Source of the DNA: Nitrosopumilaceae archaeon
GTDB taxonomy: Archaea; Thermoproteota; Nitrososphaeria; Nitrososphaerales; Nitrosopumilaceae
NCBI GenBank assembly: GCA_965208905.1
Contig: OZ242365.1
Location: forward strand, 1,536,001 to 1,600,000
Direction: 5' to 3'
DNA: 64,000 bases
Made by a program: the position numbers and the translations under genes
Part shown: one piece after another, positions 14,905-35,893 of the stretch
Layout of the letters: each line of letters begins with the position of its first letter
How positions within the stretch are numbered: position 1 is the stretch's first letter
The notes under the pieces: generated by a model
Seen by the model: only the letters and a program-made list of their open reading frames with translations
Database searches by the model: none
Told to the model about the DNA's origin: nothing

Positions 14905-16449
14905 TTACATAAAGAATCTGTAGTGATCCTGTAATACTTTATCTTTTTCCAATTCAGATAAAATCTTACCTACTTCTTCAGCAAATCTAATTGTAATTGG
15001 AAGAGCGGTTGAAAATGCAGTGGTGTTCCAATTTAGTTTTGTTAACCCAAGAATCTCTCTTGCGACGTCTTCATTCTGAGAGTTCCCTATATGTAATATG
15101 CGTAATGCGTTAGGAATCTTATGGCCTGCATACGAACGTATTCTTGGTGAAAACCCAGATGAATAAAGCAAAAATTCATTATTTGTTATTTCTACCAATG
15201 TTCCACGAAGAACAGGATAATTACCTAACCGAATAAAGTTAATCCATCCATGACTTGGACTTATTGTAACAAAGTCTTTTTCAGGAATCTTCTGTCCGTA
15301 TATTGCCTTGTTAAACCCAGTTTGTTCGTCTTCAGAAAATATAGATGACTTGTGTACTACAACTCGAGTTGGATTTCGTCCAGATGAAGTATGGTACTTT
15401 TTCAGAGCACATTCCATGAGAGTTTGTGCTTGGTTTTTTTTCATGTATGGTTGTTTTGTTTTTTCATCAATATCAACTTCGGTTCCTCGAAGCACGAGTC
15501 CCTCTCCATTATGTGTAAAGACTTGTGCCATTGAGATCTGTATATCGCGATTTGGACTTAGTTTGTCTCTAAAGAATGAAATTCCTATATAGCATGTATC
15601 TTGTCGTAGTTTTGCAAGTCTCCAAGGTTTTCCATTTGCTTTGTAGTATAATGCAGTACTGAAGTTCCAGCTAAACGTAGCAGGATCTTCTTTTGTGTTA
15701 TTTTTGAAGTTTTCATACTTTAGAACATGTTTTAATGTACTTTCTCTGATCAACTGGATTGGAATTCCATACTTCATTGCTTTGCCTTTAAGTGAGTTTC
15801 TAAAATCAAATCCCTTCTCTTTTATCTCTACATCGTTGACAGGAGCAAATCCCCATTGTGTTAGAAAGCTTTGGTGGTTTGCTTTTAGGTCTGCAGTTTT
15901 TAGCTCTAATGGTGAAGGCTTAGCAGTCTTTGCACCATATGTGTGCTCTCCAATTCCACAGTACAATTCTGCAGGTTTTGGAAGTGTACAGACAATTACG
16001 TTTGGTAGGTCATCACCTTCAGCAATTTTTTCTATTTTTTCGAGATATAGATTTACTGCATAACCAATCCTTTCATTAGGATTCTCAATATTTTCTATTT
16101 TGTGGAGTTCCAAATCATCCGACAACGACGCATTCCAATTTTTTGAGGTTTTTATAGTACACTTAAATTTACTTTTATTGTTCATTCCGGGATAATCAGC
16201 AAAAAGCCATCTGTTTAACTTGTAACTAGGAACAGGTTGTTCTATGAACCTTAAAATATCTTTAACAAGACGTGTACATTCTTTGTTTCCAATTATACCA
16301 ACTCTAACACTTTCCAACGGTGAGGATTCTTCCTGATGAAAAAATGGACCAAATTGTCCGAGGCCAATTCTAGGATCCTTGTCTTCGTTCTGGTTTCCAA
16401 AGATCAGGTCAGGTTCTGGAATATATTTTGCAACAAACTTAGGAACCAA
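14905..16449 (-). CDS. ago: Short prokaryotic Argonaute (MID-PIWI), catalytically inactive
   Basis: 514 aa with no N/PAZ. Motifs EPDLIFG..DPRIGL..FGP, KGKAM..IPIQ, ALYYKANGKPW, CYIGISFF, RVVVHKSS, YPVLRGT, ILGLTKLNWN and PITIRFA. DEDX positions are substituted (GIS for GID, HKS for HRD). Confidence 0.95.
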   Translation of the reverse strand: MVPKFVAKYIPEPDLIFGNQNEDKDPRIGLGQFGPFFHQEESSPLESVRVGIIGNKECTRLVKDILRFIEQPVPSYKLNRWLFADYPGMNNKSKFKCTIKTSKNWNASLSDDLELHKIENIENPNERIGYAVNLYLEKIEKIAEGDDLPNVIVCTLPKPAELYCGIGEHTYGAKTAKPSPLELKTADLKANHQSFLTQWGFAPVNDVEIKEKGFDFRNSLKGKAMKYGIPIQLIRESTLKHVLKYENFKNNTKEDPATFSWNFSTALYYKANGKPWRLAKLRQDTCYIGISFFRDKLSPNRDIQISMAQVFTHNGEGLVLRGTEVDIDEKTKQPYMKKNQAQTLMECALKKYHTSSGRNPTRVVVHKSSIFSEDEQTGFNKAIYGQKIPEKDFVTISPSHGWINFIRLGNYPVLRGTLVEITNNEFLLYSSGFSPRIRSYAGHKIPNALRILHIGNSQNEDVAREILGLTKLNWNTTAFSTALPITIRFAEEVGKILSELEKDKVLQDHYRFFM

Positions 16450-20157: not shown

Positions 20158-21720
20158 CAGGATGTCAATAAGATTGTGGAGTTTTTTAGTAAAAAATTCG
20201 ATGTACAGGACAGGGAAATTGCACAGAAGGACGATACAATAGCACAATTACAGGACCGGATAAAGCAGCTGGAGGAGGAAGTCACACAGACGAAATCGCG
20301 TAGGTATGGCGGCAAAAAATCCCGGTCATATAACATCCGTAAATACAAGGACTACCCACACCAGCACACGCCAAGAAACAGGCCCGACAACTCTGACTCG
20401 CACCAATTTCGTACAATACAACAGGTGGCCGATATTGTATTCTGTCCCACGTGCGGCAAACATCTTGCAGATACTGCTGTATCACGCACCCGGAAATCCG
20501 AGGATGTGTTAGACGGGCGATGGACCGTAACTGAATGGGTAGTACGCCGGCGATACTGCAAACACTGCCGTACGCAACACTCTGCAACCATTCCGGGTGT
20601 GCTGTATAATGGACATTTTGGCACTACAATAATGGCCCAGATATTTGCAATGCGGTGCCTTGCCATACCGTATGAAAAAATTCAAACCATAATACACATG
20701 CTGTTTGGCAGGTTCATCGACACATCCGTAGTTATAGACATGTGCGATGCCGTTGCAGACCGGTGCGAGCCGTTATACAATGAGATGTTGGAGGCTATAC
20801 AGCATACCGATATAGTATTTGGGGATGGCTCCGGATGGTTCCTTAATGGTGTACACTGGTGGGTCTGGGCGTTTATCACCTCACACATAGTACTGTTTCA
20901 TCTGTCTCCGTCCCGCAGCAAGCTTGTAACTGAGGCCATACTGGAGGGGTTTGATGGGATAATTGTAGGTGATTCACATTCCTCGTGGAATGATATAGGC
21001 CTGGAAAAACAGAGGTGTCTTCTGCACTATTTCCGTGACATGTACCGCACGCTAGAAAAGAACAATAGTCCAGAGTTCAAGCAGCTATTCACCGAGCTGC
21101 ATTCCATACTAAAGGATGTAATAAAGCTGCGGGAAGAACACCGGAAAACACCCGAATTGTACATACGTCGTCTACAGAGCCGCATATGTACTCTTGCAAA
21201 TGCACAATACACGGATTCGGACTGTATACGATACGCCAAGCGTTTAAGGCGCGAGGGCGGACAGCTTTTGACGTTTCTAAAACATGATGACATACCGTAC
21301 CACAACAACACAAGTGAGCGCGCCCTACGGACATTTGCACTAATGAGAAAGGTCTGTTACGGAAACCGCGCAAGGCGCGGCATAAAGACCGCTGAAATAC
21401 TGGCGAGCATATATGCAACCTGCCGTGTACGCGGCATAAACCCGTACTATTTTATGAAGGATTATCTTGACGGCAATACGGACACGATTCCACTGCCGCA
21501 AGACTCCATGATTCCAGTTGCCATCAGTACGTGATGCATAAATTGTTGCAGGACATCAGTCAGATACATCCACCTGTCTCTATTTCCAGTTGCCATCAGT
21601 ATGTGATGCGTAAATTATTGCAGGAAAGGTCAATACGATACTGCCGTGTGTATATGATTATGGATGGTTCACCGTATTTGTGTTGTGTGTGATCCCAGCT
21701 TCACAATCACGAGCTGTTAC
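20154..21720 (+). mobile_element. IS66-family element (transposase 20176..21534)
   Basis: Ends GTAACAG / CTGTTAC. Transposase motifs CPTCG, CKHC, GDGSGW, QRCLLH and NNTSERALR. No matching TSD. Confidence 0.88.
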
Positions 21721-21844
21721 GCATAAACTCCATTATTCATAATTGCAGAAAAAGGTGGTTTTAACGCCTGATAGATAGGCCGATCAAGCGTATATGAACA
21801 ATGTCTAGTTTTTATATCTAAATGTATTAAACGAGGTTAGGTCT

Positions 21845-22501: not shown

Positions 22502-23382
22502 GGTCATATGGTCTAAGTCTTGCACCACTGGGAGTTCGATATTTTTTTGGCCATCCAGATCCACTTTTTGATGGTTCTCTAGAATTTGGATTGAGGTTGG
22601 AGCTGTCCGTCTTTTTCATGACATAATAACGTGCACACATCTTTTAAAGTTTAGCGGACATGATGCTATTTCCGAACCGTTTAACATCAAATGACCCCCA
22701 CATCCTATGTTATGTAAGTCACATCTACAAAAGATCAGCAACAAAACCACACTATCACACTGCAACCGGGATGTGAGGTTCGTTTTGAAAAGTATTTGCC
22801 TGCGGGACATACCCCATAAAATCAATGTTAATTATGCATAAACTCTAATATCCGTAATTCTTACTTTCATGTCAAATCCAGGTTCAAATATTCTGATTTC
22901 AATTAATTCCACATATTGTCTAATGTTCAGTGCATCAGAGGCAAATCCAGAAAAAACCGTGCCATCATAAGCGTACGATTTACCGAAAGGCTCAAGGGTT
23001 CGCCCATATCCATCAAAACCACAACTTCATTACGCCTGCTCCGACAAGCTTGTCGTAATTGAATAATTAGTATTTATCGTGGCGGCGCGAGGCACTTCCA
23101 GAAAAAACATCGGGGTCAAATCCTGTCGAGATTTCTCCTTAAATAATAACCATGTCACATTTCAAGATCGTTTGTATGTCGAACCTAAGAATACCGTATT
23201 TTTCTAGGCCTCCTGTGGGGTCTGACCGTTTTTCTGTGGGATGCCCTTCGGGTGCCGTTTCTGGTCAAAATTACCATACCGGTGCATATAACTGCAGCAA
23301 ATTTTGTCTGTTTTCTGGCTCTAGTTTGAAAATGAGTGCATTATTTTGGATAGTCTTATGTGCATCAGGGCAGGTTCCCGGA

Positions 23383-24315
23383 TCATTCGGCATTGACCAG
23401 TTTGACAAGTCTCTGCAGATATATAGTAAATTGGTCTACAAACCCGTTGAATTTTTTTTCATCTATTTCTGTAACCAGCAAATCTTTTTCCCCGCCCCAT
23501 TCGAATATATTGTCTTGTTCGACAAGCATTCTTTTTTGCGCGAAATTATTCCTAAATCTTTCATAGCGCAGCAGCGCAAAGTCAATTTTTTTAATTACAC
23601 AACCTTCAATATCTTCTACGTCTATTCCGAATTCCTCGGAAATCATGTACACATCTAAAAAATCTCGAGCTTTGGTTCCTCTTCTGGTTAAGAGTGCCCT
23701 GATCTTCTCACTCATAATTTCTTTTATGTCATATATCCTAAAAGGTATCGAAGAGGAGTATTGATCATATTCGTCAAACACACCCTCCAGATCTTTGTGT
23801 TCGTCTCCAATCAGGCTCCGAAGGGCCCCGTATTGCGGTTTCATGCACAAATCTTCTACAAAGTTTATTTGCACTTTCAAATCCACATTTCTGTTTAGTA
23901 TTACAGAGTTATAGCGGATGTGGAATGTAGTGATCCTTCCACCGTTGTTTAATTCCACGTAATTCCTGTTGCCTTTATCCCACTTGAAATCAAGGTTGCA
24001 CCCGGCCGCGATGCCTTCCAACATGTTTCCAGTCTGTTCCAGCACATCTTCCAAATACTTGACAATCCAGCTCGTTGTTTTTCCGACAAACTCTTCCTGT
24101 TTCCGCCATGTAAAGTCCAAGTCTTCGGAGAACCTGTAATATCCGAGATAATATTTTATCAGGCAGGTCCCACCCTTGAAAAGAAAATTATCGGCAAAGA
24201 ACCCATCTCTGGACAGGTCTGCAAGTATTTGATGTAAGACAAAGTCTTTTTCAATTTGTTCCATTCTCGAAATCTTTGTCAGCGTCGAGACTTGATTTAT
24301 GAAGTACGAATTCAT
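23383..24315 (-). CDS. abiEii: AbiEii/AbiGii-family nucleotidyltransferase toxin (type IV TA)
   Basis: IEKDF, FKGGTCL.K.Y..YRFSEDLDF and EKIRALL.R..KARDFLD motifs. Confidence 0.92.
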   Translation of the reverse strand: MNSYFINQVSTLTKISRMEQIEKDFVLHQILADLSRDGFFADNFLFKGGTCLIKYYLGYYRFSEDLDFTWRKQEEFVGKTTSWIVKYLEDVLEQTGNMLEGIAAGCNLDFKWDKGNRNYVELNNGGRITTFHIRYNSVILNRNVDLKVQINFVEDLCMKPQYGALRSLIGDEHKDLEGVFDEYDQYSSSIPFRIYDIKEIMSEKIRALLTRRGTKARDFLDVYMISEEFGIDVEDIEGCVIKKIDFALLRYERFRNNFAQKRMLVEQDNIFEWGGEKDLLVTEIDEKKFNGFVDQFTIYLQRLVKLVNAE

Positions 24316-24947
24316 TAAACCATCCTATCCACCATTTTTGCTACCGATTTTGGATAGTTTACGGCATATCTCTGCATCTTTTTTTGGGATACGTTTTCAG
24401 CCCATTCAGAGGTATCCATCATAATTCTTTCACTGTTCTTTCCTTCTTGCCGCCACAAATAAACAAAGTCCAAAATTGTCTTTTCTGGATCAGAGTAGCG
24501 AAGTAGTCCTTCGGTCTTTATTCCAAAACCAAGCAGGGAAGGGACAATCTTGATAAAGTCGAAATAGTATCCTGTTATCTTTATTGGTTTTTGACGAAAT
24601 ATAGAATCATTGATCACCTTCTCAATCACAAAATATTCATGCGTCATGTTGTTGAGTTTCAATGCGGAATGAAGGCCAAAGTGCCAGTTTTTTACACCCT
24701 TTAACTCCATACCTTTTGCTACCAGTTCCAGATGGTTGTATCTTTCCTTTCTTAGTACCATATCCTCGGGAGGCCTAACATAAAATATTCCCCTAAAGAT
24801 CCTTGTCAGGTGACCACGGTGAACAAAGTTTCTGACAGTTGTGTCGTAATCCAAGTGCAGTTTAATGCAGTAACCTTTTAGGACCTCGGCGGTGACAAAT
24901 TCTTCTTTCTCCACCCATAGCTTGTTGAGTAGCTTACTTATCTTCAT
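24315..24947 (-). CDS. abiEi: AbiEi-like antitoxin/transcriptional regulator
   Basis: wHTH-like N-terminus (LTRIFRGIFYV), SAL..N.MT and YSDPEKTILDF. Translationally coupled to abiEii. Confidence 0.85.
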   Translation of the reverse strand: MKISKLLNKLWVEKEEFVTAEVLKGYCIKLHLDYDTTVRNFVHRGHLTRIFRGIFYVRPPEDMVLRKERYNHLELVAKGMELKGVKNWHFGLHSALKLNNMTHEYFVIEKVINDSIFRQKPIKITGYYFDFIKIVPSLLGFGIKTEGLLRYSDPEKTILDFVYLWRQEGKNSERIMMDTSEWAENVSQKKMQRYAVNYPKSVAKMVDRMV

Positions 24948-24959
24948 GTGTATAACAAC

Positions 24960-25018
24960 CTCTCACTTAGTGAGAGTTTATGATATATATAATAACATCT
25001 CACTTAATGAGAGGTTAT
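24960..25018. promoter_or_regulatory. Two palindromic operators flanking the TATA region of abiE
   Basis: CTCTCACT-T-AGTGAGAG (24960-24976) and ATAACATCTCACTTAATGAGAGGTTAT (24992-25018) sit around ATATATATAA. Confidence 0.75.
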
Positions 25019-25190
25019 GATATACAACAGTCTTCCAATGTCGGGCTGTAAGGAAATCTTGAACAAATTACGTACCTCAGGGCGCTTAGACCAGAGTACT
25101 CCAAGGCGTCGTGCCTGTTAAACGTGCTTCCAAGAGGCAGGTCGGTTACTATCCTAACCACTCTAGAGTTTATGCGTAATCAGAGTTAGT

Positions 25191-26634
25191 AGAGTTTATG
25201 CGTAATCAAACCACTTTCAAGCGATCTGAAACACATAACACGCTGTTGGTGTTTCCACCATCCAGAGGTATACATTGAGCCTTCCGCGTACCGGGAAGGG
25301 TTGCTCCAACCACGGGGGGAGTCATACCCGTGTCAAGATGTATCTGCCCTCTCGAGGCCAGTCTGACCTCGCGCTGGAGTTTCTGCACGGCGCGAATCCG
25401 CGCAGACCACCAGACGATTGCAAAAGTGTATAGTATATTGAATGCTGCGTTTACATCCGCGTGTATTGTTTTACGACTGTTCATGACAGGTTAATTTCCG
25501 GCCTTCGCGCAATGTGTTATATCTGCAGCACATAAAGCACATCTTTGAGGTGTTGCGGGGGTTGACCTCTGCATATTCGACGTTGTGTCGTGTGGAGCCA
25601 TACGCCATGTAATTCCGTGCCTCGCCGCACTTTGACTGTCGCATCTTTTTGTTCTTCTCTGTCTGTCCCGGGCCGGCGCGCGTCAGGGTATCAAGCCCCA
25701 TCCCCTCAAAGATTATCTTGTCACACTGCTCGAATAGTTTTTTGGCGAACTTTCTGAGTCTGTCGCGCTGACGATTCTTCATCTTTCTGTATATGGCGTT
25801 TAACTGTTTTTTGAGATTGACATATTTCCGCGAACCTGCTGTGCAGCGCGACATGCGCTGGTGCAGCCCGCGTATCTTGTGTAGTGTGATCTTTTCGCGT
25901 AATGACAATACATTTGCGGTTCCATCGGACTTGGCAACTACCATGGTATGGTGCCCACCCATGTCTACTCCGGCGAACACACCGGTACATACGCGGTCCG
26001 GTATATGCTCACGAACTGTCACATGTAGCTCGAACTGCCGTTCCTTATCAGAGTGGTTTGTAACGTCTACTATCTTGTACGACTGGGAGTCTTTGGGCAG
26101 CTCGCCTTTCTGCAAGTAGAATGGAACACTGCAACACGGAAAGTAGACCACATTGCCGGTGGACTTTTTTCCCAGCGGCCTGGCGCTATACAATGGATAT
26201 GTATGGTTGCCATACGGTACAACCCTCTTGTGTTGTACGTCTGGTGTCTTGCACTTGCACACATCTTCAGGTGAGCCGCACGATGTACAGCTGCCCTGCA
26301 TCTTTCTGCCGACCTGTATCGCCCCGTACGCGAATGCTTGTGGTATAGTAGATACAAGCGTTACGACCTTTGCGCAGTCAATGAACGTCGCCCCAATGTT
26401 TCTGGCCTGCAGACCGGCGTTCAACCATACATGAGACTCGGACTCCATCGAATCAAAGTATGCAGTCAGCCGGGTGCTAGTCTTGAGACGATACGTTAGT
26501 GTGCGGGTCACATGCTTGGTTCCCTGATACTTTGGTATAATGTACTGTACAGTCTATACAATATACATGATCCGACATATATATACAATTTTAAAAATTA
26601 TAATAGTCAGATTTTTCGATTACGCATAACCTCT
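25191..26634 (-). mobile_element. 1444-bp TIR-bounded element carrying tnpB (copy 1)
   Basis: 17-bp TIRs AGAG(T/G)TTATGCGTAATC with AGT on both flanks. Appears identical to 34175..35618. Confidence 0.92.
25206..26511 (-). pseudogene. tnpB: TnpB RNA-guided nuclease, split by a frameshift before RuvC-III
   Basis: GVDMG (RuvC-I), IIFEGM (RuvC-II) and VNPRNTSKMC..C are in the 346-aa ORF. HADVNAAFNIL (RuvC-III) is in the overlapping 92-aa ORF. Confidence 0.9.
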
Positions 26635-26637
26635 AGT

Positions 26638-27110
26638 GTCATAACCCCTTACGAGTTTGGCTTATTGGTGTCACTGGGGTACGCTCTTGTCATTGCCATA
26701 GCCCCCTCTGAACACAAAACATCCTATTGTATCTTGAGACTGATCTCTTGTACAACATTCTCCCACTTTCTGGCGGCCACAGAATCTCCAAAAAATCTCT
26801 TAAATGAAGATGTTACTATCTCAACCAGCCATCTCAAGCCATATTTCACTCGCCTCTTCCACTTTTTTCGGTTAGACTCGCGCTCTTCCTTTGTCAGCTG
26901 CGCAAACCTTCTCGGGTCTGCAATGCCGTCGCCTAACTGATCAATAACTGCCATGGTCCTGTCCCTGCTGACACCACGGGAGCGTGTCGTTGCATTATGG
27001 TTTATCCGGACATAGGGTATGATACCAAGTTATTTGCATGTCTCAAATATCCTACGCGAATCAAACCCACCATCTGTGCGCATCACTATATTTGCAACAG
27101 TTCGTAGCTG
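26638..27110 (-). pseudogene. IS5-family transposase C-terminal fragment
   Basis: DGGFDSR..GIIP and WK..VKYG.RWLVEIV.SSFKR.FGD motifs, with in-frame stops. Confidence 0.8.
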
Positions 27111-27359
27111 TGAAGTTAGGCGTGAAAAATCTGATACTTGGTCAGGTTATGTCTATTTCTTCAAGCAAAAGACTGCTTTTTACGCATGGATATCATGCTG
27201 ACCTGACTAAGTATAATTTTAGTATATAACCCAACCTCATAACGGCGAGATGTTACGATTTTTGATGTTTTGCTAGTTACACCTAAACGACATGGCGTCG
27301 GTACAAAAGGGACATCACATACCCAAAAATCTTTAAGATGGTGCACATCATAATAGTGT

Positions 27360-28280
27360 ATGGGAGCAACAAAACGTCAGGACGATGAAGATTTAGACGA
27401 AACATCGCATACTACAAAACAAAATGTAAAGAAACCAAGTGATAAGCATGCAACTTCTGATGTAGTATTTGATGACGGGTTACAGATACAACCACCAGAT
27501 GGACTTACTAGATTTGGTGAGTATTATTTTAGAGTTATGTCAAAGATAACAGATGACGAAGACTATATGGATTGGTTGATAAATACATTTGATGAGTACA
27601 AGCGCGATATACTTAGAGATATGACTTTAACGTTTCAGAGCATGTACGCTGTGGAATTTTTGGAAATCGTCAGAATGATAGGAAGTGCAGTTCTAGATGG
27701 AGGCACAGAACGTGCAATCATGATGGTAGAAAGTCTGGAACTAGATGTGGAAGAAACTGCAGGGCTGTATGCTAAAATATACATGGCGGCCGATAGGTGG
27801 GATGAAGCGTTGGATGGTCTCTTGAAGGTTCATTATGAGGAGTACGAGTTGAGTGGACTGTTTGAATTTATGACGGATATAGCATATAGAATGAACAAAA
27901 CTACGGAATTAGACAAGATGTGCAAGGAATGGGATAAACAAGGATATGACAGAATAAATCTCCACATAAATCGAGCTAGGGTAATGTGCAGAAAGGGGTT
28001 TTTGGATGACGGTCTAAATATGACCGATGCAATATTGACGTTGGAGCCTACTAATTCTATGGCGCATCTACTACGAGGCAACATTTTGGCTACACGTGGA
28101 ATGCACAAGGATGCCATTGGCGAGTTCAAAGAGGGTCTAAAACATGACGACGATCCCCTACTTAGTATCGGCCTTGCCAAGTCATTTTATGCAGTCGGTC
28201 AAAAACAGCAGGCACAAAAACTGCGCGATGATCTGCTAGACAGGGGAATAAACCCCAAGATACTTGTGTCCGTGCAATAA
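27360..28280 (+). CDS. TPR-repeat protein
   Basis: C-terminal TPR patterns (LEPTNSMAHLLRGNILA..G..DAI..F..GL). Confidence 0.8.
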   Translation: MGATKRQDDEDLDETSHTTKQNVKKPSDKHATSDVVFDDGLQIQPPDGLTRFGEYYFRVMSKITDDEDYMDWLINTFDEYKRDILRDMTLTFQSMYAVEFLEIVRMIGSAVLDGGTERAIMMVESLELDVEETAGLYAKIYMAADRWDEALDGLLKVHYEEYELSGLFEFMTDIAYRMNKTTELDKMCKEWDKQGYDRINLHINRARVMCRKGFLDDGLNMTDAILTLEPTNSMAHLLRGNILATRGMHKDAIGEFKEGLKHDDDPLLSIGLAKSFYAVGQKQQAQKLRDDLLDRGINPKILVSVQ

Positions 28281-28408
28281 AAACTAAAAACCCACACTGT
28301 CGTAAATCTTTAGCAAGTATGCCGGGTCGGTAAGACAACAAGTAATACACAAAATTTCAACAAATACCATACAACAAACTCCCGTTAGCACATCACCACA
28401 TACTTACT

Positions 28409-29993
28409 AGAGTTTATGCGTAATTGACATGCATATTGTATAGATGGTTATGATCAATTTACACTATTTGGTAAATATTCTAAATATGGGACAAAATTGG
28501 ATGAATTTTGGCATTATGCTATGTAAAACAGATCTCCAGTCAAACTTTTAGCGATACGTGTTTTCGACAGTGCCGACGGCCCGGTTGATATTCCCAAAAG
28601 TTGTGTGCAGTCTCGTGCATGTAAATCATGGTCCGCTGTATAAGCAGGTGGTACCAAGTACCGCCATACGTCATGATGATGCCCTCATACGGAGTATCTT
28701 GTCCTTCCAGATATGGTAGGTACCATCCCTGTGCATCTTGCGCATGTCATACATATGGCATTAAAGTCGTCATTGAACTCTTGTGTTGTACCATCATATC
28801 TGCCGGATATGCGCGTCCAGTTTTTAACATGCGCAAAGACATTCTCAACTTTTATTCTTCTTTTAGAATGGGTCCTGTTGTATGCCCGTTTAGTCTTTGG
28901 GAGTTCCTTATTTTTTGGCTTTATGTATGGAACGCGCTCATCTACACCGGCAAAGTATTTTTTCAAATCCTGATGTATACTATCCCCAACAACCTGTATA
29001 CGTTCCTCTCTTGGGATTTCATTATGCTGCATTCTGTCCAACCATTTACCAAAATTAGGCATATTCTCCCTGAATACTGTAATATCATGACAGCTTCCCT
29101 CCCTAGAATTGGTTATTATACACAACGTAACTCTTCTTGTTGGTTAGGGCGGTCGTGCTGATGGCAAACATCTTGCCCTTGCCCGAATACTATTTCTTTC
29201 GCTCGGTACTATTTTGGGGACGGGTTGTCTCGACCAGTGTGCCGTCCGGTATAATCTCGCCACCCTGACGCCCGGGCAGTATCTCTTTTAATTCTTCAAT
29301 GGTTTTGGTAGATTCTATTAATTTTGTAATGTTGTGCGATGTCACCAGCAGTACATCATCATCATGTGTAGCCACAAACTTGAGATAGCGTAATTTGATC
29401 TATTCTGAACATTTCACCCAGTACAAACTGTGGCATGTTGAGGGCCCGCCGCATGAGCGACATCAAAAATATATGTCGTATGTGTAGTAGACATTGATTT
29501 CCAGCATCAGACTTTCTACTTTTATCATCCCTGAAATGAGGCACATCAGGACTATTCCGTATAATTTTATCGAACAGGGCAAGAGCCTCCTTAAACTCAC
29601 CCCTACGAAGCCGTGTAAAACGGTACATTATTTCATCATTGCCGATTATTCTATTCCATCATCAATACCATATCAGGAGGCAGGTCAGATGTGTGCCGCT
29701 GTTTGCCAGTATCGGTAATCCAGAATTTGTTATCCCGCTTGATAAGTTCATTTAATTCTGTTATCTGCCTAGTATTTTCTGCTAGTTCCTTATCCTTCTT
29801 TGCTAGTTCCACATTCTTCTCTACCAATTCCTTATCCTTTTTTGCCAGGAGCGTCCATAACTGCCTGTCATCAAGTGATTGCATGATTTCTATCCTTGAA
29901 ATTATATTTAACAGTACAAATTAGAAAATTTAACTAATGGTCAATAAAATTATAGTAAGCGGTTTTTAAGATCATCAATTATGCATAAACTCT
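28409..29993 (-). mobile_element. IS5/ISL2-like (DDE_Tnp_4) element with decayed transposase
   Basis: 19-bp TIRs AGAGTTTATGC(G/A)TAATTGA. Fragments 29362..29628 (HTH), 29190..29375 (DGT..RP) and 28685..29125 (GSCHD, GDS, YNR.HS..RIKVEN.F). Confidence 0.88.
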
Positions 29994-30072
29994 AGTCCAT
30001 ATACAGCACCGCACACCATCCACTTGTGAGACATTATTTACCAGTTTTATAAAAATAAAGTTTGGTAGACAA

Positions 30073-31002
30073 TTATGATTTTTTGCGTCTCTTGGTGGTT
30101 GTGTCTACGCCTGCATACGTGTTTGCCCCGCGAATGGATGCATTTTTGTATATGTCATCCATTGTATCAAGAAACTTTTCAGTGCCACGCCACATTGGAA
30201 AACCACCCCATTGTTTTATGGTTGCGGCATTATCCGAGGGTATCGACATACTCTCGTATGAACCAGTATCATTGTGACTGCCCCAAAATTTATCAAGGTT
30301 TATCGGTGAAGATTCAGATGCCAGTGGAACATCAGACTGTACGGTGTGATAATTATCCGGGGTGCCGGCCCTTATGCATGAGTGTTTAGGGTGTGCATCA
30401 GCAGGTACATCATCAAGAATGTCTAGTATGTGATGTCTGTCCACGCCCAGAATTCTCCAATACCAGAACGAGTCATGGTCAATCTCTTCGGCTAAAACCT
30501 GGCATATGGCCATGACGTGCTTGCATATTGAGTACCAGCGATGACAGGTACAATCTGTTTCTATGATCCAATTGAGACCAAGCATATCTGCCACTCCCGC
30601 CTCGGACAGCTCAGACGCCATCGCCTTTGTCATCTCTCCAGATAGTATCTTTGCCGCCAAGGCAGGCCTCTGCCGACATACCCCGGCAATGCTTTTGGCA
30701 TAGTCGTAATTTGGTATTTTAATCTTTATTGATGTCTGGTGGGGGGATGCCTGTGCACCCTGCACCATGCCGTACACATGGCCCCTCTGCACGTCTACTT
30801 GTAACACCTGACCCTTGCGGGCATACGTTCTGCCCTGTGTAAAAGTATCACCAGCGCCCGAATTGTATACCAGCTCAACCCAGTGGTCGGCCAGCCAGCT
30901 CTTGCCTATATCACCCTTTTTGGTTCGTATCTTTATTCCATTCTTCCGGGATCGGGGGCGCCTACGCCGGGGCCTAGAATTATAGTAATAATAATATGTC
31001 AT
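30073..31002 (-). CDS. SWIM zinc-finger protein
   Basis: GRTYARKGQV..V.G and DCTC..CKHV.A motifs. 4-bp overlap with the SNF2 gene. Confidence 0.9.
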   Translation of the reverse strand: MTYYYYYNSRPRRRRPRSRKNGIKIRTKKGDIGKSWLADHWVELVYNSGAGDTFTQGRTYARKGQVLQVDVQRGHVYGMVQGAQASPHQTSIKIKIPNYDYAKSIAGVCRQRPALAAKILSGEMTKAMASELSEAGVADMLGLNWIIETDCTCHRWYSICKHVMAICQVLAEEIDHDSFWYWRILGVDRHHILDILDDVPADAHPKHSCIRAGTPDNYHTVQSDVPLASESSPINLDKFWGSHNDTGSYESMSIPSDNAATIKQWGGFPMWRGTEKFLDTMDDIYKNASIRGANTYAGVDTTTKRRKKS

Positions 31003-34000
31003 ATTATGGCCGCCTCCCTACTCAGAGATAGAATATTTCGAAGATCGTTATTTGACATCTCTGTAAGCCAGCCCTCACCAGTGCCCACCACCTTGTCGGC
31101 AACAAGTTTTTTGGCCTCGATCATGTCATTTATCCTCTCTTCCAGCGTGCCCGCACACATCATTTTATGTACCTGGACGCTCCGTTTCTGGCCTATACGA
31201 AAGGCCCGGTCAGTTGCTTGATTCTCAACTGCAGGGTTCCACCAGCGATCAAAGTGAAATACGTGGTTGGCGGCAGTTAGGTTCAGTCCCGTCCCTCCAG
31301 CCTTCAACGACAGTATGAATATCGATGGACCGTCACCTCCCTGAAAATTATCCACCATCTCATCACGCTTGCTCTTTGGCACCGCACCATACAGAAACGG
31401 TACATCAACATTGAATATCTTTTTTAGATGACTCTGTAGCATCTTGCCCATCTCCGCATACTGGGTGAACACCAGCGCCCGCTCCCCTGCAGATATAACC
31501 TCATCCAGCATTCCAATCAGTCTGGCCAGCTTGCCTGAACGATCACCCATACTTGAGTTATCTCCCAGAAAGTGTGCGGGGTGATTACAGACCTGCTTGA
31601 GCCGGGTCAACGTACTCAGTATGATGCCCTTCCGTTGTATTCCTTCAGATGACGCAAGAGCCCTCTCCGTATCTTTTATAATCGACGCATACAATGATGC
31701 CTGCTCCTTTGTCAGTGGACAGAGTACATTCATCTCCATCTTTTCAGGCAAGTCCGATATTATACTCTTGTCGGTCTTTACTCTCCGAAGTATAAAGGGT
31801 CCGGTGGCCCGCTTGAGTCTGTCTGCTACCTCCTCATCATGTCTTGTCTGTACCGGAGTCATGTAATTACGCTGGAACTGTCCCTGTGTACCTAAAAAGC
31901 CGGGATTTAAAAAGTCCATTATAGACCACAAGTCGCCCAAATGGTTCTCCACAGGCGTTCCGGTCAGGGCAAACTTGTACTCTGCTGTCAGTGAGCGGGT
32001 GGCCTTGGACTGCTTGGCCTCGGGATTCTTTATATTTTGGGCCTCATCCAACACGACACCCTGCCAGTCTATCTCGGAGAGAAGTTTCAGATCCCGCTGT
32101 AGCAGACCATAACTTGTTATAACGATGGCATGTCGTTGGGCAGCATCTTGGAATTTGTGGGATTTTAGCCTGTCTGAACCATGGTGTATCATAACCGGCA
32201 AGTTGTGAGTAAATCGGGCCGCCTCCCTCTGCCAGTTATTCATGACTGATGTGGGGCATACCAGCAGTGTAGGCCGTTGGCTCTTTGGCCAGTCGTGTTG
32301 TATTAACGCCAGCATCTGTACTGTCTTGCCCAGGCCCATATCATCTGCCAGACATCCTCCAAGCCCCCACTGACTCAAAAAGACCAGCCACGAGTATCCC
32401 CGTACTTGGTAGGGCCTCAGTGTTCCGGTGAATCCTTCTGGTTGTTCCAGTTCTTCAAACTCGGCCTGCCCCTCTATCTTTTGTAGTACATCGGTCATGT
32501 GTCCGGCGGTCTGTACACCACCAAACTCCAACTCCTGCGGCAGGTCTGCCATGCCCAGTGTAGTCTTTATGACATCCCGAAATGTCATTCTTTTGGGCCC
32601 CTTCTTTAGAAACTTCACCGCAGACTTTATCTCGGATTTATTTACAGCCACCCATCTTCCACGCACCCGTACCAGAGGCTCCTTTATCCTGGCAAGATCC
32701 TCCAACTCCTGTAGCGTGACCTTTTGGTCTCCTAATGCCGCCTCCCAATCAAATGACACTATGGTATCCAATGAGAGCATGCCTGTAGATGAGTTAAATC
32801 CCTTGTCTGTCTGGCCTACAATACGGGGTTTAGAGCCCTTACGGCTCCACCAAGACGGAAGCAATACCGCATAACCGGCATCCCGTAACGTTTCAGCATC
32901 ATCATTTAGGAATTTGAATGCACCATCCATGTCGGTTATATATCCAGTGATGTCATTCTGGTCTAAACCATCACGTACACTCGAGGATATCTTTGCGGTT
33001 CGACTCAGTGATAGTATGAGATACTCTTTTAGCTCGTCCACCTTTAATCCCGGCATTTCATCATTCGCCCATAGATGATCTGGAGTAACCATCAGGCTGG
33101 GATCATCTTTGTTTTGTAAAAGAAAGGTTACACGCCAGTCCGAGTCGTCTGTGGGCTCTTCTAATCTAAAGCAGAGTCTAAAGTCGGAGTAGAACTGCAT
33201 ATCCAGTGGATGAAACCACCTGCGTACGTCTGCTACAAAACTTTGTATGTCGTCTAATTTTGGGTACGCGTCTCCCAGTGTCTTTAGTGCATATATCCAC
33301 ATATCGTGTGGGGAGCTGAACTGTTTGCGTATACTGCGTCTAGGCGTATTGTTGCCGGATGCGGCCGTCCGTACAATATAATCCAGCATGATTGCCACCA
33401 TCCTTTGAAGTATATCTGCAGGGCTGCTACTAGGCATACTCTGTCCTGACACGGTGAGGGCTCTTGCCACAAGCGGCATCTGGTTTTGTAGATCCTGTAT
33501 TCGCTGATGGACGTCATCAGAGTACGTCATATTCCATACTGCCGCATATGCATCGCCAGCATCTATCAGGTCCGGCAGATACTGCTGCCTCACCACCTGA
33601 AAACTTGCCAGCTTTAGTACATCTACCCAGTACTTTATGTCCGCACCTATGACAATATCGCTCTTTAGAGTATCCTTTCCCATACATGCAGAGAGTATGC
33701 TTATCGTATCTGTTGTTGAGAGTGGAATGGCTGTAATCTGCCAGGGGGATATCTCCATCTTGTCATCTGTCTGTGTGGTTGTAGATGGTATGGGTCCGAG
33801 TCTGTTTGTGGGCAGCCAGGCAGTTATTGTGGTGTCGTTGAGTTTTAACTTTGTACCCCTTACGGCCTTGCTTATATCTTGTAATGTGGCACCGAACACA
33901 CCTGTCTGTTTTGGTAGAAGGCTACTCTCTGTGTTCTCCCCCCACAGATACAGTCTACCATCACAGTACCCGATATGAAGAATAATCATTACAAACTTGT

Positions 34001-34016
34001 GAAAAAATAAACTCAT
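30999..34016 (-). CDS. SNF2-family helicase (DUF3670-type)
   Basis: LADDMGLGKT, LDEAQNIKN, ALTGTPVEN, SLKAGGTGLNL and WWNPAVENQATDRAFRIGQ motifs. Confidence 0.95.
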   Translation of the reverse strand: MSLFFHKFVMIILHIGYCDGRLYLWGENTESSLLPKQTGVFGATLQDISKAVRGTKLKLNDTTITAWLPTNRLGPIPSTTTQTDDKMEISPWQITAIPLSTTDTISILSACMGKDTLKSDIVIGADIKYWVDVLKLASFQVVRQQYLPDLIDAGDAYAAVWNMTYSDDVHQRIQDLQNQMPLVARALTVSGQSMPSSSPADILQRMVAIMLDYIVRTAASGNNTPRRSIRKQFSSPHDMWIYALKTLGDAYPKLDDIQSFVADVRRWFHPLDMQFYSDFRLCFRLEEPTDDSDWRVTFLLQNKDDPSLMVTPDHLWANDEMPGLKVDELKEYLILSLSRTAKISSSVRDGLDQNDITGYITDMDGAFKFLNDDAETLRDAGYAVLLPSWWSRKGSKPRIVGQTDKGFNSSTGMLSLDTIVSFDWEAALGDQKVTLQELEDLARIKEPLVRVRGRWVAVNKSEIKSAVKFLKKGPKRMTFRDVIKTTLGMADLPQELEFGGVQTAGHMTDVLQKIEGQAEFEELEQPEGFTGTLRPYQVRGYSWLVFLSQWGLGGCLADDMGLGKTVQMLALIQHDWPKSQRPTLLVCPTSVMNNWQREAARFTHNLPVMIHHGSDRLKSHKFQDAAQRHAIVITSYGLLQRDLKLLSEIDWQGVVLDEAQNIKNPEAKQSKATRSLTAEYKFALTGTPVENHLGDLWSIMDFLNPGFLGTQGQFQRNYMTPVQTRHDEEVADRLKRATGPFILRRVKTDKSIISDLPEKMEMNVLCPLTKEQASLYASIIKDTERALASSEGIQRKGIILSTLTRLKQVCNHPAHFLGDNSSMGDRSGKLARLIGMLDEVISAGERALVFTQYAEMGKMLQSHLKKIFNVDVPFLYGAVPKSKRDEMVDNFQGGDGPSIFILSLKAGGTGLNLTAANHVFHFDRWWNPAVENQATDRAFRIGQKRSVQVHKMMCAGTLEERINDMIEAKKLVADKVVGTGEGWLTEMSNNDLRNILSLSREAAII

Positions 34017-34297
34017 ATAAATACCACTTCTATACGCAACTTTCTGTCATAACTATTCCCGAATATCGCTACATTGATCAAAACACCTATAGCTCCCATC
34101 ATTAAGCCATCTAGTTATGGTAAAAACTGACAACCATACAGTACATCAAGTGTGGCGCAGACATGTCGTACAGTAGAGGTTATGCGTAATCGAAAAATCT
34201 GACTATTATAATTTTTAAAATTGTATATATATGTCGGATCATGTATATTGTATAGACTGTACAGTACATTATACCAAAGTATCAGGGAACCAAGCAT

Positions 34298-35603
34298 GTG
34301 ACCCGCACACTAACGTATCGTCTCAAGACTAGCACCCGGCTGACTGCATACTTTGATTCGATGGAGTCCGAGTCTCATGTATGGTTGAACGCCGGTCTGC
34401 AGGCCAGAAACATTGGGGCGACGTTCATTGACTGCGCAAAGGTCGTAACGCTTGTATCTACTATACCACAAGCATTCGCGTACGGGGCGATACAGGTCGG
34501 CAGAAAGATGCAGGGCAGCTGTACATCGTGCGGCTCACCTGAAGATGTGTGCAAGTGCAAGACACCAGACGTACAACACAAGAGGGTTGTACCGTATGGC
34601 AACCATACATATCCATTGTATAGCGCCAGGCCGCTGGGAAAAAAGTCCACCGGCAATGTGGTCTACTTTCCGTGTTGCAGTGTTCCATTCTACTTGCAGA
34701 AAGGCGAGCTGCCCAAAGACTCCCAGTCGTACAAGATAGTAGACGTTACAAACCACTCTGATAAGGAACGGCAGTTCGAGCTACATGTGACAGTTCGTGA
34801 GCATATACCGGACCGCGTATGTACCGGTGTGTTCGCCGGAGTAGACATGGGTGGGCACCATACCATGGTAGTTGCCAAGTCCGATGGAACCGCAAATGTA
34901 TTGTCATTACGCGAAAAGATCACACTACACAAGATACGCGGGCTGCACCAGCGCATGTCGCGCTGCACAGCAGGTTCGCGGAAATATGTCAATCTCAAAA
35001 AACAGTTAAACGCCATATACAGAAAGATGAAGAATCGTCAGCGCGACAGACTCAGAAAGTTCGCCAAAAAACTATTCGAGCAGTGTGACAAGATAATCTT
35101 TGAGGGGATGGGGCTTGATACCCTGACGCGCGCCGGCCCGGGACAGACAGAGAAGAACAAAAAGATGCGACAGTCAAAGTGCGGCGAGGCACGGAATTAC
35201 ATGGCGTATGGCTCCACACGACACAACGTCGAATATGCAGAGGTCAACCCCCGCAACACCTCAAAGATGTGCTTTATGTGCTGCAGATATAACACATTGC
35301 GCGAAGGCCGGAAATTAACCTGTCATGAACAGTCGTAAAACAATACACGCGGATGTAAACGCAGCATTCAATATACTATACACTTTTGCAATCGTCTGGT
35401 GGTCTGCGCGGATTCGCGCCGTGCAGAAACTCCAGCGCGAGGTCAGACTGGCCTCGAGAGGGCAGATACATCTTGACACGGGTATGACTCCCCCCGTGGT
35501 TGGAGCAACCCTTCCCGGTACGCGGAAGGCTCAATGTATACCTCTGGATGGTGGAAACACCAACAGCGTGTTATGTGTTTCAGATCGCTTGAAAGTGGTT
35601 TGA
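34298..35603 (+). pseudogene. tnpB: TnpB, split by the same frameshift as copy 1
   Basis: ..ACC TGT CAT GAA C AGT CGT AAA ACA ATA CAC GCG GAT..: one extra base near 35330. Confidence 0.9.
35461..35600 (+). ncRNA. Putative omega/reRNA scaffold of TnpB
   Basis: Consecutive hairpins CACGGG/CCCGTG (35477-35498), GGTTG/CAACC (35498-35510), CCTTCC/GGAAGG (35510-35529) and TGGTG-GAAA-CACCA (35549-35562) lie downstream of RuvC-III. Mirror copy at ~25209-25348. Confidence 0.6.
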
Positions 35604-35621
35604 TTACGCATAAACTCTAGT

Positions 35622-35893
35622 ATAACCCCGAGTGAAAGTGTGATGTCAACTGTGCCAACAAGGGAAAGGTGGGTGCTCCGTATCAATATTCGGAGACATT
35701 GATTATGCTGACCGCTGCTCTCAGGGTCGGGATTGGAGTCCGGAATATGCAACTTGAAGGCATAGTCGGAAAGATGATTGGAGAATCCAATACGCCTTCC
35801 TTTAGCCATATACGCAAGCGGATAGGCAAGATCTATGTGAATAGAAATCAGAATGAAGTAATAACAGTGTCAAACATGGAGTGGGTCTGGTGA
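35622..35893 (+). pseudogene. IS5-family transposase N-terminal fragment
   Basis: GKVGAPYQYSETLI..R..QLEG..PSFSHIRKRI motif. Confidence 0.7.

Follow-up and report, generated by a model that had tools for sequence, protein, structure and literature searches.

In an older view, given in the available text of Bao and Jurka 2013 (PMC3627910), elements that carry tnpB alone lack inverted repeats and target duplications. The available portion of Altae-Tran et al. 2023 (PMC10691335) describes six DDE-associated branches of prokaryotic TnpBs (DDE-1 to DDE-6) with inverted terminal repeats, together with solo TnpBs that have the same ends and are moved in trans. According to the accessible part of Kojima 2026 (PMC13565253), the transposases concerned are of the ISL2, IS630 and IS1031 types and the association is rare in prokaryotes; the question is also raised there whether such TnpBs remain capable of restorative homing where a DDE element has been excised. 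Here we describe an archaeal element of this kind, termed type C, of which two copies (25191-26634 and 34175-35618) lie in a 64,000-nucleotide stretch of DNA, the window, corresponding to bases 1536001-1600000 of the genome of a sponge-associated, ammonia-oxidising archaeon of the Nitrosopumilaceae (2.21 Mb, single contig, rated 99.6% complete). Coordinates are those of the window unless stated to be of a genome. Type C is most probably a transposase-less shell of the IS5 family (DDE_Tnp_4) of insertion sequences (ISs), with tnpB and an overlapping omegaRNA region as its sole cargo, mobilised in trans. The original prediction had proposed such a trans-mobilised, non-autonomous tnpB element, and its ends, target duplication and DDE_Tnp_4 kinship agree with that proposal; the cargo is instead a pseudogene and the cognate transposase of this genome is dead. 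The arrangement of tnpB within DDE inverted repeats in prokaryotes was already reported in 2023 (available text of PMC10691335). To this the present genome adds a second, unrelated TnpB lineage on the same ends, 21 TnpB genes in shells of IS1595 type and repeated reassortment of cargo and shell.

Type C resembles the published DDE-associated and solo TnpBs (PMC10691335, text as available) in placing a prokaryotic tnpB alone between terminal inverted repeats (TIRs) that also occur on transposase-bearing elements, and its transposase would likewise belong to the IS5 family (ISL2/IS1031-like). It differs from those published cases in its host, a member of the Nitrosopumilaceae, in its tnpB pseudogenes and dead partner transposase, and in the occupation of one shell by two unrelated TnpB lineages. 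With the IS1341 group of the IS200/IS605 family type C shares the presence of tnpB alone and an overlapping structured 3' RNA, and among solved chains ISDra2 TnpB (8bf8/8exa, E = 1.2e-4) is the closest. In contrast, the IS1341 group is described, in the available text of PMC3627910 and PMC13565253, without inverted repeats and target duplications, both of which are present in type C. A Y1 TnpA would be expected with IS200/IS605 elements and a serine recombinase TnpA with IS607. As the original prediction had stated for the locus, neither is found, and this now extends to the whole genome: the Y1 (PF01797) and serine recombinase (PF00239) profiles gave 0 matches each, the same searches being positive in 6 and 12, respectively, of 14 control genomes. 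Fanzors, found in eukaryotes and giant viruses, are likewise TnpB homologs carried by inverted-repeat transposons of the DDE type from several superfamilies, but the type C host is archaeal (CdvA and a plastocyanin-like gene lie in the window) and the solved-structure search, whose top matches were bacterial TnpBs, returned no Fanzor chain at E up to 0.01. The view, also held in the original prediction, that TnpB within DDE inverted repeats is typical of eukaryotic Fanzors is outdated by the prokaryotic cases in the available text of Altae-Tran et al. 2023 (PMC10691335).

Ends, insertion sites and the related insertion sequence

The two type C copies are mutually inverted, an arrangement that had escaped the earlier description of two identical copies of 1444 bp, and lie 7.5 kb apart. 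Copy 1 carries tnpB on the minus strand and copy 2 has the opposite, plus orientation; each matches the 1444-bp query at 100% over its whole length (1-1444), and 0 of 1444 positions differ between them. When the window is compared with itself the inverted arms measure 1453 nt, consisting of the element and 4-5 bases of flank, of which one is mismatched at each side. The TIRs are 17 bp long and match each other at 16/17 positions. At the RNA end the repeat reads AGAGTTTATGCGTAATC (25191-25207 in copy 1 and 35602-35618 in copy 2), and at the gene-start end it reads, going inward, AGAGGTTATGCGTAATC (26618-26634 and 34175-34191). Both copies are flanked on both sides by AGT on the plus strand, forming a 3-bp target duplication at 25188-25190 and 26635-26637 for copy 1 and at 34172-34174 and 35619-35621 for copy 2. 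Repeats and flanks are thus as originally predicted. Drawing the ends one base inward would give a TA duplication, a reading excluded by a sister element that has GTT on either side (genome 1028506-1029980). A perfect 3-bp direct repeat flanks 5/5 TnpB-bearing elements with AGAG ends and, together with the ends held in common with a transposase-bearing element, makes type C resemble a non-autonomous derivative of the IS5 family. The ISL2 and IS1031 groups belong to this family and generate target duplications of 2-3 bp. Mobile insertion cassettes and miniature inverted-repeat transposable elements, or MITEs, are transposase-less derivatives of DDE ISs moved in trans, and type C is like them in its IS ends, its target duplication, its lack of a transposase and its autonomous relatives and shorter derivatives (334 bp in this genome, at genome 2020378-2020711, and 463 bp in a relative). 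It differs from a MITE in carrying a 1.3-kb gene and an RNA, and is hence a cassette rather than a miniature.

Copy 2 splits another IS5-family element (NF033579-type, 172 bits against a cut-off of 140), the left half of which occupies 34026-34174 and which resumes at 35619-35876. In five other copies of this host IS the flanks of copy 2 are contiguous, providing paralogous empty sites. Two of the five were inspected directly and read GTACAGTATAAC (also given as ...GACATGTCGTACAGTATAACCC...) with a single AGT, while the filled site reads AGT, element, AGT. Copy 2 is therefore a discrete, clean insertion with a 3-bp duplication. The outer flanks of the pair are also AGT, as would suit a composite transposon formed by both inverted copies together with the intervening 7.5 kb; this candidate is ruled out, since it is the two flanks of copy 2 by itself that adjoin each other in the paralogous sites, and the copies therefore inserted singly. 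The original prediction had allowed that the second copy might be an assembly artefact. The different flanks of the two copies argue against this. So do contigs made independently from run X2, in which the element has a depth of 24.2 against 9.6-12.4 for the flanks, about twofold, and its RNA-side end is seen in both flank contexts; the support from X2 is partial, as the run may be the assembly's own data. Runs X6 and X7, which derive from another organism, hold several copies with other flanks (breakpoints at 25187-25190 and 26633-26639) and give no cover of the region between the two copies.

A nearly identical repeat bounds, as the original prediction had seen, a DDE_Tnp_4 element of the IS5 family at 28409-29993 on the minus strand, termed type B, whose ends (28409-28425 and 29977-29993) read AGAGTTTATGCGTAATT and AGAGTTTATGCATAATT. 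This element is dead. Its transposase is broken into four pieces in three frames, corresponding to residues 68-157, 157-246, 248-370 and 370-392 of an intact homolog, and the largest piece scores 41.5 bits with PF13359. The intact homolog, a protein of 395 residues, lies between AGAGTTTATGCGTAATC and AGAGATTATGCGTAATC in genome G023, from another genus of the same family; it is 54% identical to the largest type B piece and scores 74.3 bits with PF13359 (cut-off 24.8). With NCBIfam NF033581 the G023 protein and the window piece score 76 and 48, under the cut-off of 140, while the Pfam profile is passed by both. In genome G386 common AGAGATTATGCGTAATC ends are found on three elements, namely a DDE element of 1479 bp, its 1067-bp derivative and the 463-bp miniature. 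A scan of the host genome for the 17-mer with up to three mismatches gave 43 matches, clustered at element ends, and of 401 sampled genomes of the family 19, belonging to 5 of 27 genera, contain the end pattern, with up to 237 matches in one genome; a reversed control pattern gave at most one match per genome. The 237 matches, all exact, are in G343, again from another genus, and mostly delimit miniatures of ~285 bp (15250-15536, for example). To judge from these repeats, G343 has undergone a burst of the same transposon family in which TnpB of type C, or of the sister type A described below, has no part. In five end-rich genomes (G343, G063, G041, G386 and G084) neither TnpB was found at E up to 1e-10 (0/5), an empty answer that weighs little by itself. 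Because the repeats bound DDE_Tnp_4 elements and miniatures in genomes that lack both TnpBs, the ends appear to belong first to an IS5-family IS and its miniatures, with the tnpB cargo a local addition. A search of the genome and its relatives for more copies, empty sites and an intact transposase had been suggested together with the original prediction; further elements with these ends, the five empty sites and the intact transposase of G023 are what the analysis offers on these points.

Two larger elements were considered as joint carriers of transposase and tnpB, and rejected. The 3.2-kb element of G023 (256270-259498) has an IS6-like element nested beside the transposase, which supplies the extra gene (PF13610 with SWIM), and the extra gene in a 2.9-kb element of G343 is, by eye, an IS4-like transposase; tblastn detected no tnpB in either. 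Exact 17-mers in metagenome contigs were found at 58 loci, as single matches and none with a TnpB or DDE protein by tblastn, and were treated as chance, as was locus L079, in which tandem copies of the 17-mer form part of an unrelated repeat.

Around copy 1 further repeat-like sequences are present. A solo exact 17-bp repeat (25165-25181, plus strand) lies 9 bp ahead of the element and is followed by AGAGTT, both within 25165-25190, and 24946-25026 is occupied by two tandem palindromic units of 37 nt, each half of which is similar to the internal portion of the 17-bp repeat. Together they look like remnants of the same transposon family, or mini units originating from it, beside the insertion. 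Two more repeat-like sites on the minus strand (21715-21731 with three mismatches and 22830-22846 with two) adjoin an AbiEi/AbiEii pair at 23383-24947.

The tnpB cargo and its structured 3' region

The tnpB of copy 1 extends over 25209-26538 on the minus strand. Compared with its paralogs and with relatives from other organisms, it is a pseudogene in both copies, disabled by three changes. The type C protein scores 40.2 bits with PF01385 (cut-off 30.5) and 78 bits with NF040570, the latter falling short of the cut-off of 100 owing to truncation of the frame. Nine of the 11 closest paralogs in the genome were aligned with it at ~55-58% identity; its RuvC-I and RuvC-II motifs line up with theirs, as does, out of frame, RuvC-III. 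In this alignment the frame breaks inside the second cysteine pair of the zinc finger, where one extra base at 25482 leaves the RuvC-III motif HADVNAAFNIL running in the next frame. In addition, a zinc-finger cysteine is changed to serine at 25478 and the ancestral start codon at 26536-26538 is now ATA. Contigs from X6 and X7 contain the type C element at ~95-98% identity and differ from the window at all three positions: they have one base fewer at 25482, which restores the frame, T>A at 25478, which turns the serine back to cysteine, and ATC ATG TCA in place of ATT ATA CCA (changes at 26535, 26536 and 26539), which restores the start codon. An intact form of 443 residues, database protein P0001 from another archaeon, is 94% identical over 99% of the query; it has 11 member sequences, is encoded on a 1.78-Mb NCBI contig and reads MSKYQG...LTCHDCRKTIHADVNAAFNIL.... 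The present stop codon lies 280 bp from the element end, and an intact, P0001-like frame would stop at 25206-25208, within the inverted repeat. DDE-associated TnpBs are characterised in the available text of PMC10691335 by a tnpB 3' end no more than ~250 bp from the transposon end, a distance within which the intact frame falls. In 400 sampled genomes of the family no match to P0001 was obtained outside this genome at E up to 1e-150, and the type C protein found one unrelated weak match among genome contigs and none among metagenome contigs. Archaeal-type TTAAATA promoter boxes are seen by eye ahead of the type C paralogs.

The 3' end of tnpB is overlapped by a structured region (25242-25381, minus strand) that closes with a GGTG-GAAA-CACC hairpin followed by AACA. 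Folded together with 10 paralogs, this region yields a consensus of 32 pairs, nine of them compensatory; the alignment was made on anchored coordinates and still puts part of the 3' end of type C in the wrong place; the stems described in what follows were verified by eye. One covarying hairpin is CCTTCC/GGAAGG in type C and ATGGCC/GGCTGT in the paralogs, and the terminal hairpin varies between GGTG/CACC, GGTGG/CCACC and GGCGG/CCGCC, with AACA next in each. Folding of 25191-25400 alone gives z = -2.38 and the matching region of type A z = -4.10. Rfam returned, at E up to 1, chance miRNA-like matches and the neighbouring tRNA only. The covariation fits an omegaRNA that overlaps the 3' end of the gene. 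Beyond it the terminal 53 nt (25191-25243, minus strand) form a hairpin in the minimum-free-energy structure, in which an inward-facing, degenerate version of the repeat (AGCGTGTTATGTGTTTC) pairs with the outer inverted repeat, and may be likened to a small palindromic unit set directly against the RNA scaffold.

In metatranscriptome run X1 three short contigs match the element; these are contigs only, which show no RNA ends and in which DNA carry-over is possible, and one of them covers a truncated fragment at genome 1897823 plus neighbouring DNA. That fragment (genome 1897823-1897969) is one of two truncated RNA-side type C ends. The other (genome 1730695-1730711) has 11 nt, as against 30 nt in type C, between the scaffold end and the end formed by AGTGGTTT plus the repeat. 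A search for targets of the sequence 3' of the RNA scaffold also gave genome sites 413801 and 1711143, at which CCAACA and a palindromic hairpin, as follow the paralog scaffolds, stand with no recognisable scaffold ahead.

Sister elements and exchange of cargo and shell

The AGAG ends of type C are shared by a second element, type A, of 1475 bp, which carries a distant TnpB. Its full copies at genome 63120-64594, 187535-189009 and 1028506-1029980 are flanked by ATT, ACT and GTT, respectively. The stop codon of type A falls within the repeat. Four copies have retained open frames, and the ratio of nonsynonymous to synonymous divergence (dN/dS) is 0.16-0.22 at dS 0.25-1.56. This TnpB has long been associated with its shell, and the gene has been under selection there.

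In the whole genome 64 TnpB-like frames of at least 330 residues are present. The largest set, 21 frames, lies between GGGAATTATATA... ends (genome 102957-104422, 456071-457536 and 33496-34967 are examples), nine of them with an exact 8-bp flanking repeat in an automatic scan. The same ends also bound transposase elements of the IS1595 family (NF033547, 176 bits against 75) with 8-bp duplications, among which those at genome 1770047-1772736 and 1043578-1046414 also carry a methylase-HNH gene; the end motif has more than 100 further matches, short miniatures among them. These IS1595-type cassettes are like type C in their tnpB-only cargo, DDE-type ends and target duplication, while type C has ends of IS5/DDE_Tnp_4 type and a duplication of 3 bp rather than 8 bp. 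Among the papers found that name both TnpB and IS1595, none is by title or abstract about an association of the two. A further 18 frames have GGTTCCTCCCGCAA... ends, five, in the type C elements and type A, have AGAG-type ends, and 20 have other ends. The 11 nearest type C paralogs fall in the last set; their inverted repeats reach 75 nt and their duplications measure 6-8 bp. In these paralogs (genome 376986-378401 and 10 others) the repeats include a second, inverted version of the scaffold-end hairpin and of the CTGCCGTACGGCAG hairpin next to it, so the 3' end of the RNA is part of the transposon end. Two multi-copy TnpB families (~1.63 kb and ~1.53 kb) end in inverted repeats of GGTTCCTCCCGCAAAG.CGGGTGAT type, as at genome 329320-331026 and 973801-975216, with no clear target duplication seen and no candidate transposase identified for these families. 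Overall, inverted repeats with a score of 14 or more were detected at 33 of 51 TnpB frames and at 4 of 176 control genes of similar length, and a duplication accompanies the repeat in none of these four controls.

On a FastTree phylogeny of the 64 TnpB proteins, which has long branches flagged by the tool, AGAG ends require at least two changes and IS1595-type ends at least three, forced by well-supported branches. Because ends and TnpB lineages are incongruent on this tree, cargo and shell have been reassorted several times in this genome. Between type C and its nearest paralogs the similarity begins at the start codon and does not extend past the RNA scaffold; each shell has a promoter region of its own and its own sequence past CCAACA.

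The window itself is a mobile-element and defence island, containing PLD-SNF2, GmrSD, Schlafen/AlbA_2, an HsdM fragment, a HEPN/MNT-like pair, AbiE and Mrr, in addition to an SNF2-DUF3670 helicase at 30999-34016. Transposase genes of IS66, IS630, IS3 and IS4/5 type are also present, with CdvA and the plastocyanin-like gene beside them.

Proposed mobilisation of type C and alternative explanations

A DDE_Tnp_4 transposase supplied in trans would bind both ends of type C and excise the element, which would then be pasted into a 3-bp target, often AGT or ACT. TnpB would play no part in this cut-and-paste step; it does not seem to be required for movement, because a copy that was already broken was duplicated. 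In intact relatives TnpB and its RNA presumably form an RNA-guided nuclease that helps the element to persist. The element would now be stranded in this genome, since the only cognate transposase gene is dead, and the enzyme of its last move may have come from the neighbouring type B at a time preceding the decay of the latter, or from a copy that was foreign or has been lost.

Several observations weigh against such mobilisation in trans. No intact cognate transposase is present in this genome, where PF13359 gives one match and tblastn with the G023 protein recovers the broken copy only. A matching 3-bp repeat is found at none of the four transposase-bearing or transposase-derived copies examined (0/4: type B, flanked by ACT and AGT and hence not by a direct repeat, and L099, L100 and L101 of G386) and at one of four end pairs in G343 (1/4), and thus the duplication is documented only for the TnpB-bearing elements. 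Finally, the identity of the two copies may have been kept by gene conversion as well as by recent movement.

Among the alternatives, the one that survives best supposes that a tnpB element of IS605/IS1341 type entered a pre-existing AGAG MITE, giving a passive composite with no functional link between cargo and ends. Such nesting is possible, if doubtful. It would account for the resemblance of the last 53 nt beyond the scaffold to a separate mini palindromic unit and for the end debris near copy 1, namely the solo repeat at 25165 and the palindromic units at 24946-25026. It would also suit the gene-start side of type C, where stretches of 27 nt (74%) and 16 nt (94%) are similar to the two subterminal regions of the DDE element; the type C shell hence derives from such an IS. 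Internal IS605/IS607 ends, which the original prediction had named as the sign of an ordinary IS1341 nested in a MITE, do not appear: no internal IS605-type ends are detectable in type C, and its similarity to the 11 nearest paralogs breaks off at the start codon and the scaffold end. Those paralogs themselves lie between other inverted repeats with 6-8-bp duplications, and the genome is devoid of TnpA. Nor was an empty miniature element found in the genome whose halves match both type C ends, with both subterminal parts. Type A, moreover, has kept the same end and its TnpB to a dS above 1 under purifying selection. Nesting concerns the origin of the element only, and is compatible with mobilisation in trans today.

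It is unlikely that the identical copies are older insertions homogenised by gene conversion, or products of a segmental duplication, instead of the outcome of recent transposition. Their inverted arrangement at 7.5 kb, the presence of all three disabling lesions in both and the want of a working transposase in the genome would suit this account. However, the 3-bp duplications of the two copies are separate and their flanks unrelated, and copy 2 is cleanly inserted in another IS, so two separate insertion events took place. Furthermore, the transposase copy has decayed to four pieces while the elements show 0/1444 differences. The original prediction had read this identity as a sign of recent movement; gene conversion may account for it too.

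That the ends are native to the tnpB element, which would move by a TnpB- or host-dependent route with its likeness to DDE ends secondary, is very improbable, as the excess of inverted repeats at TnpB frames over control genes (33/51 against 4/176) and the lack of TnpA, which would favour it, are set against the occurrence of the same 17-mer on transposase elements and MITEs in five genomes, 0/5 of them with a type A or type C TnpB, the copying of an already broken tnpB and the incongruence of ends and TnpB lineages on the tree.

Mobilisation in trans leaves room for a further proposal, itself improbable, on how the cargo reached its shells. The unit of tnpB and guide RNA might be a modular cassette that moves among unrelated shells, with the shell's own end as its guide, cutting sibling shells and being copied into them by repair. 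The shells would be those with IS5-type AGAG ends, those with IS1595-type GGGAATTAT ends and others, and the boundaries of the unit may be the start codon and the scaffold end. The guide may be the shell end and not host DNA at the flank, since in every shell the scaffold lies against the inverted repeat or overlaps it. If true, this would constitute a TnpA-independent spread of TnpB and a prokaryotic parallel to the presence of Fanzors in many transposon superfamilies.

Type C provides a clean, well-bounded archaeal case in which a DDE transposon has TnpB as its passenger, with a cognate IS, empty sites, miniatures and an intact relative. The duplication of a copy with a dead nuclease points to movement without need of TnpB. 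The presence of two distant TnpB lineages on the same ends, and of near-relatives on different ends, shows that cargo and shell reassort. These two points, and a genome with 64 TnpB frames but without any TnpA, bear on the role of TnpB outside the IS605 and IS607 families.

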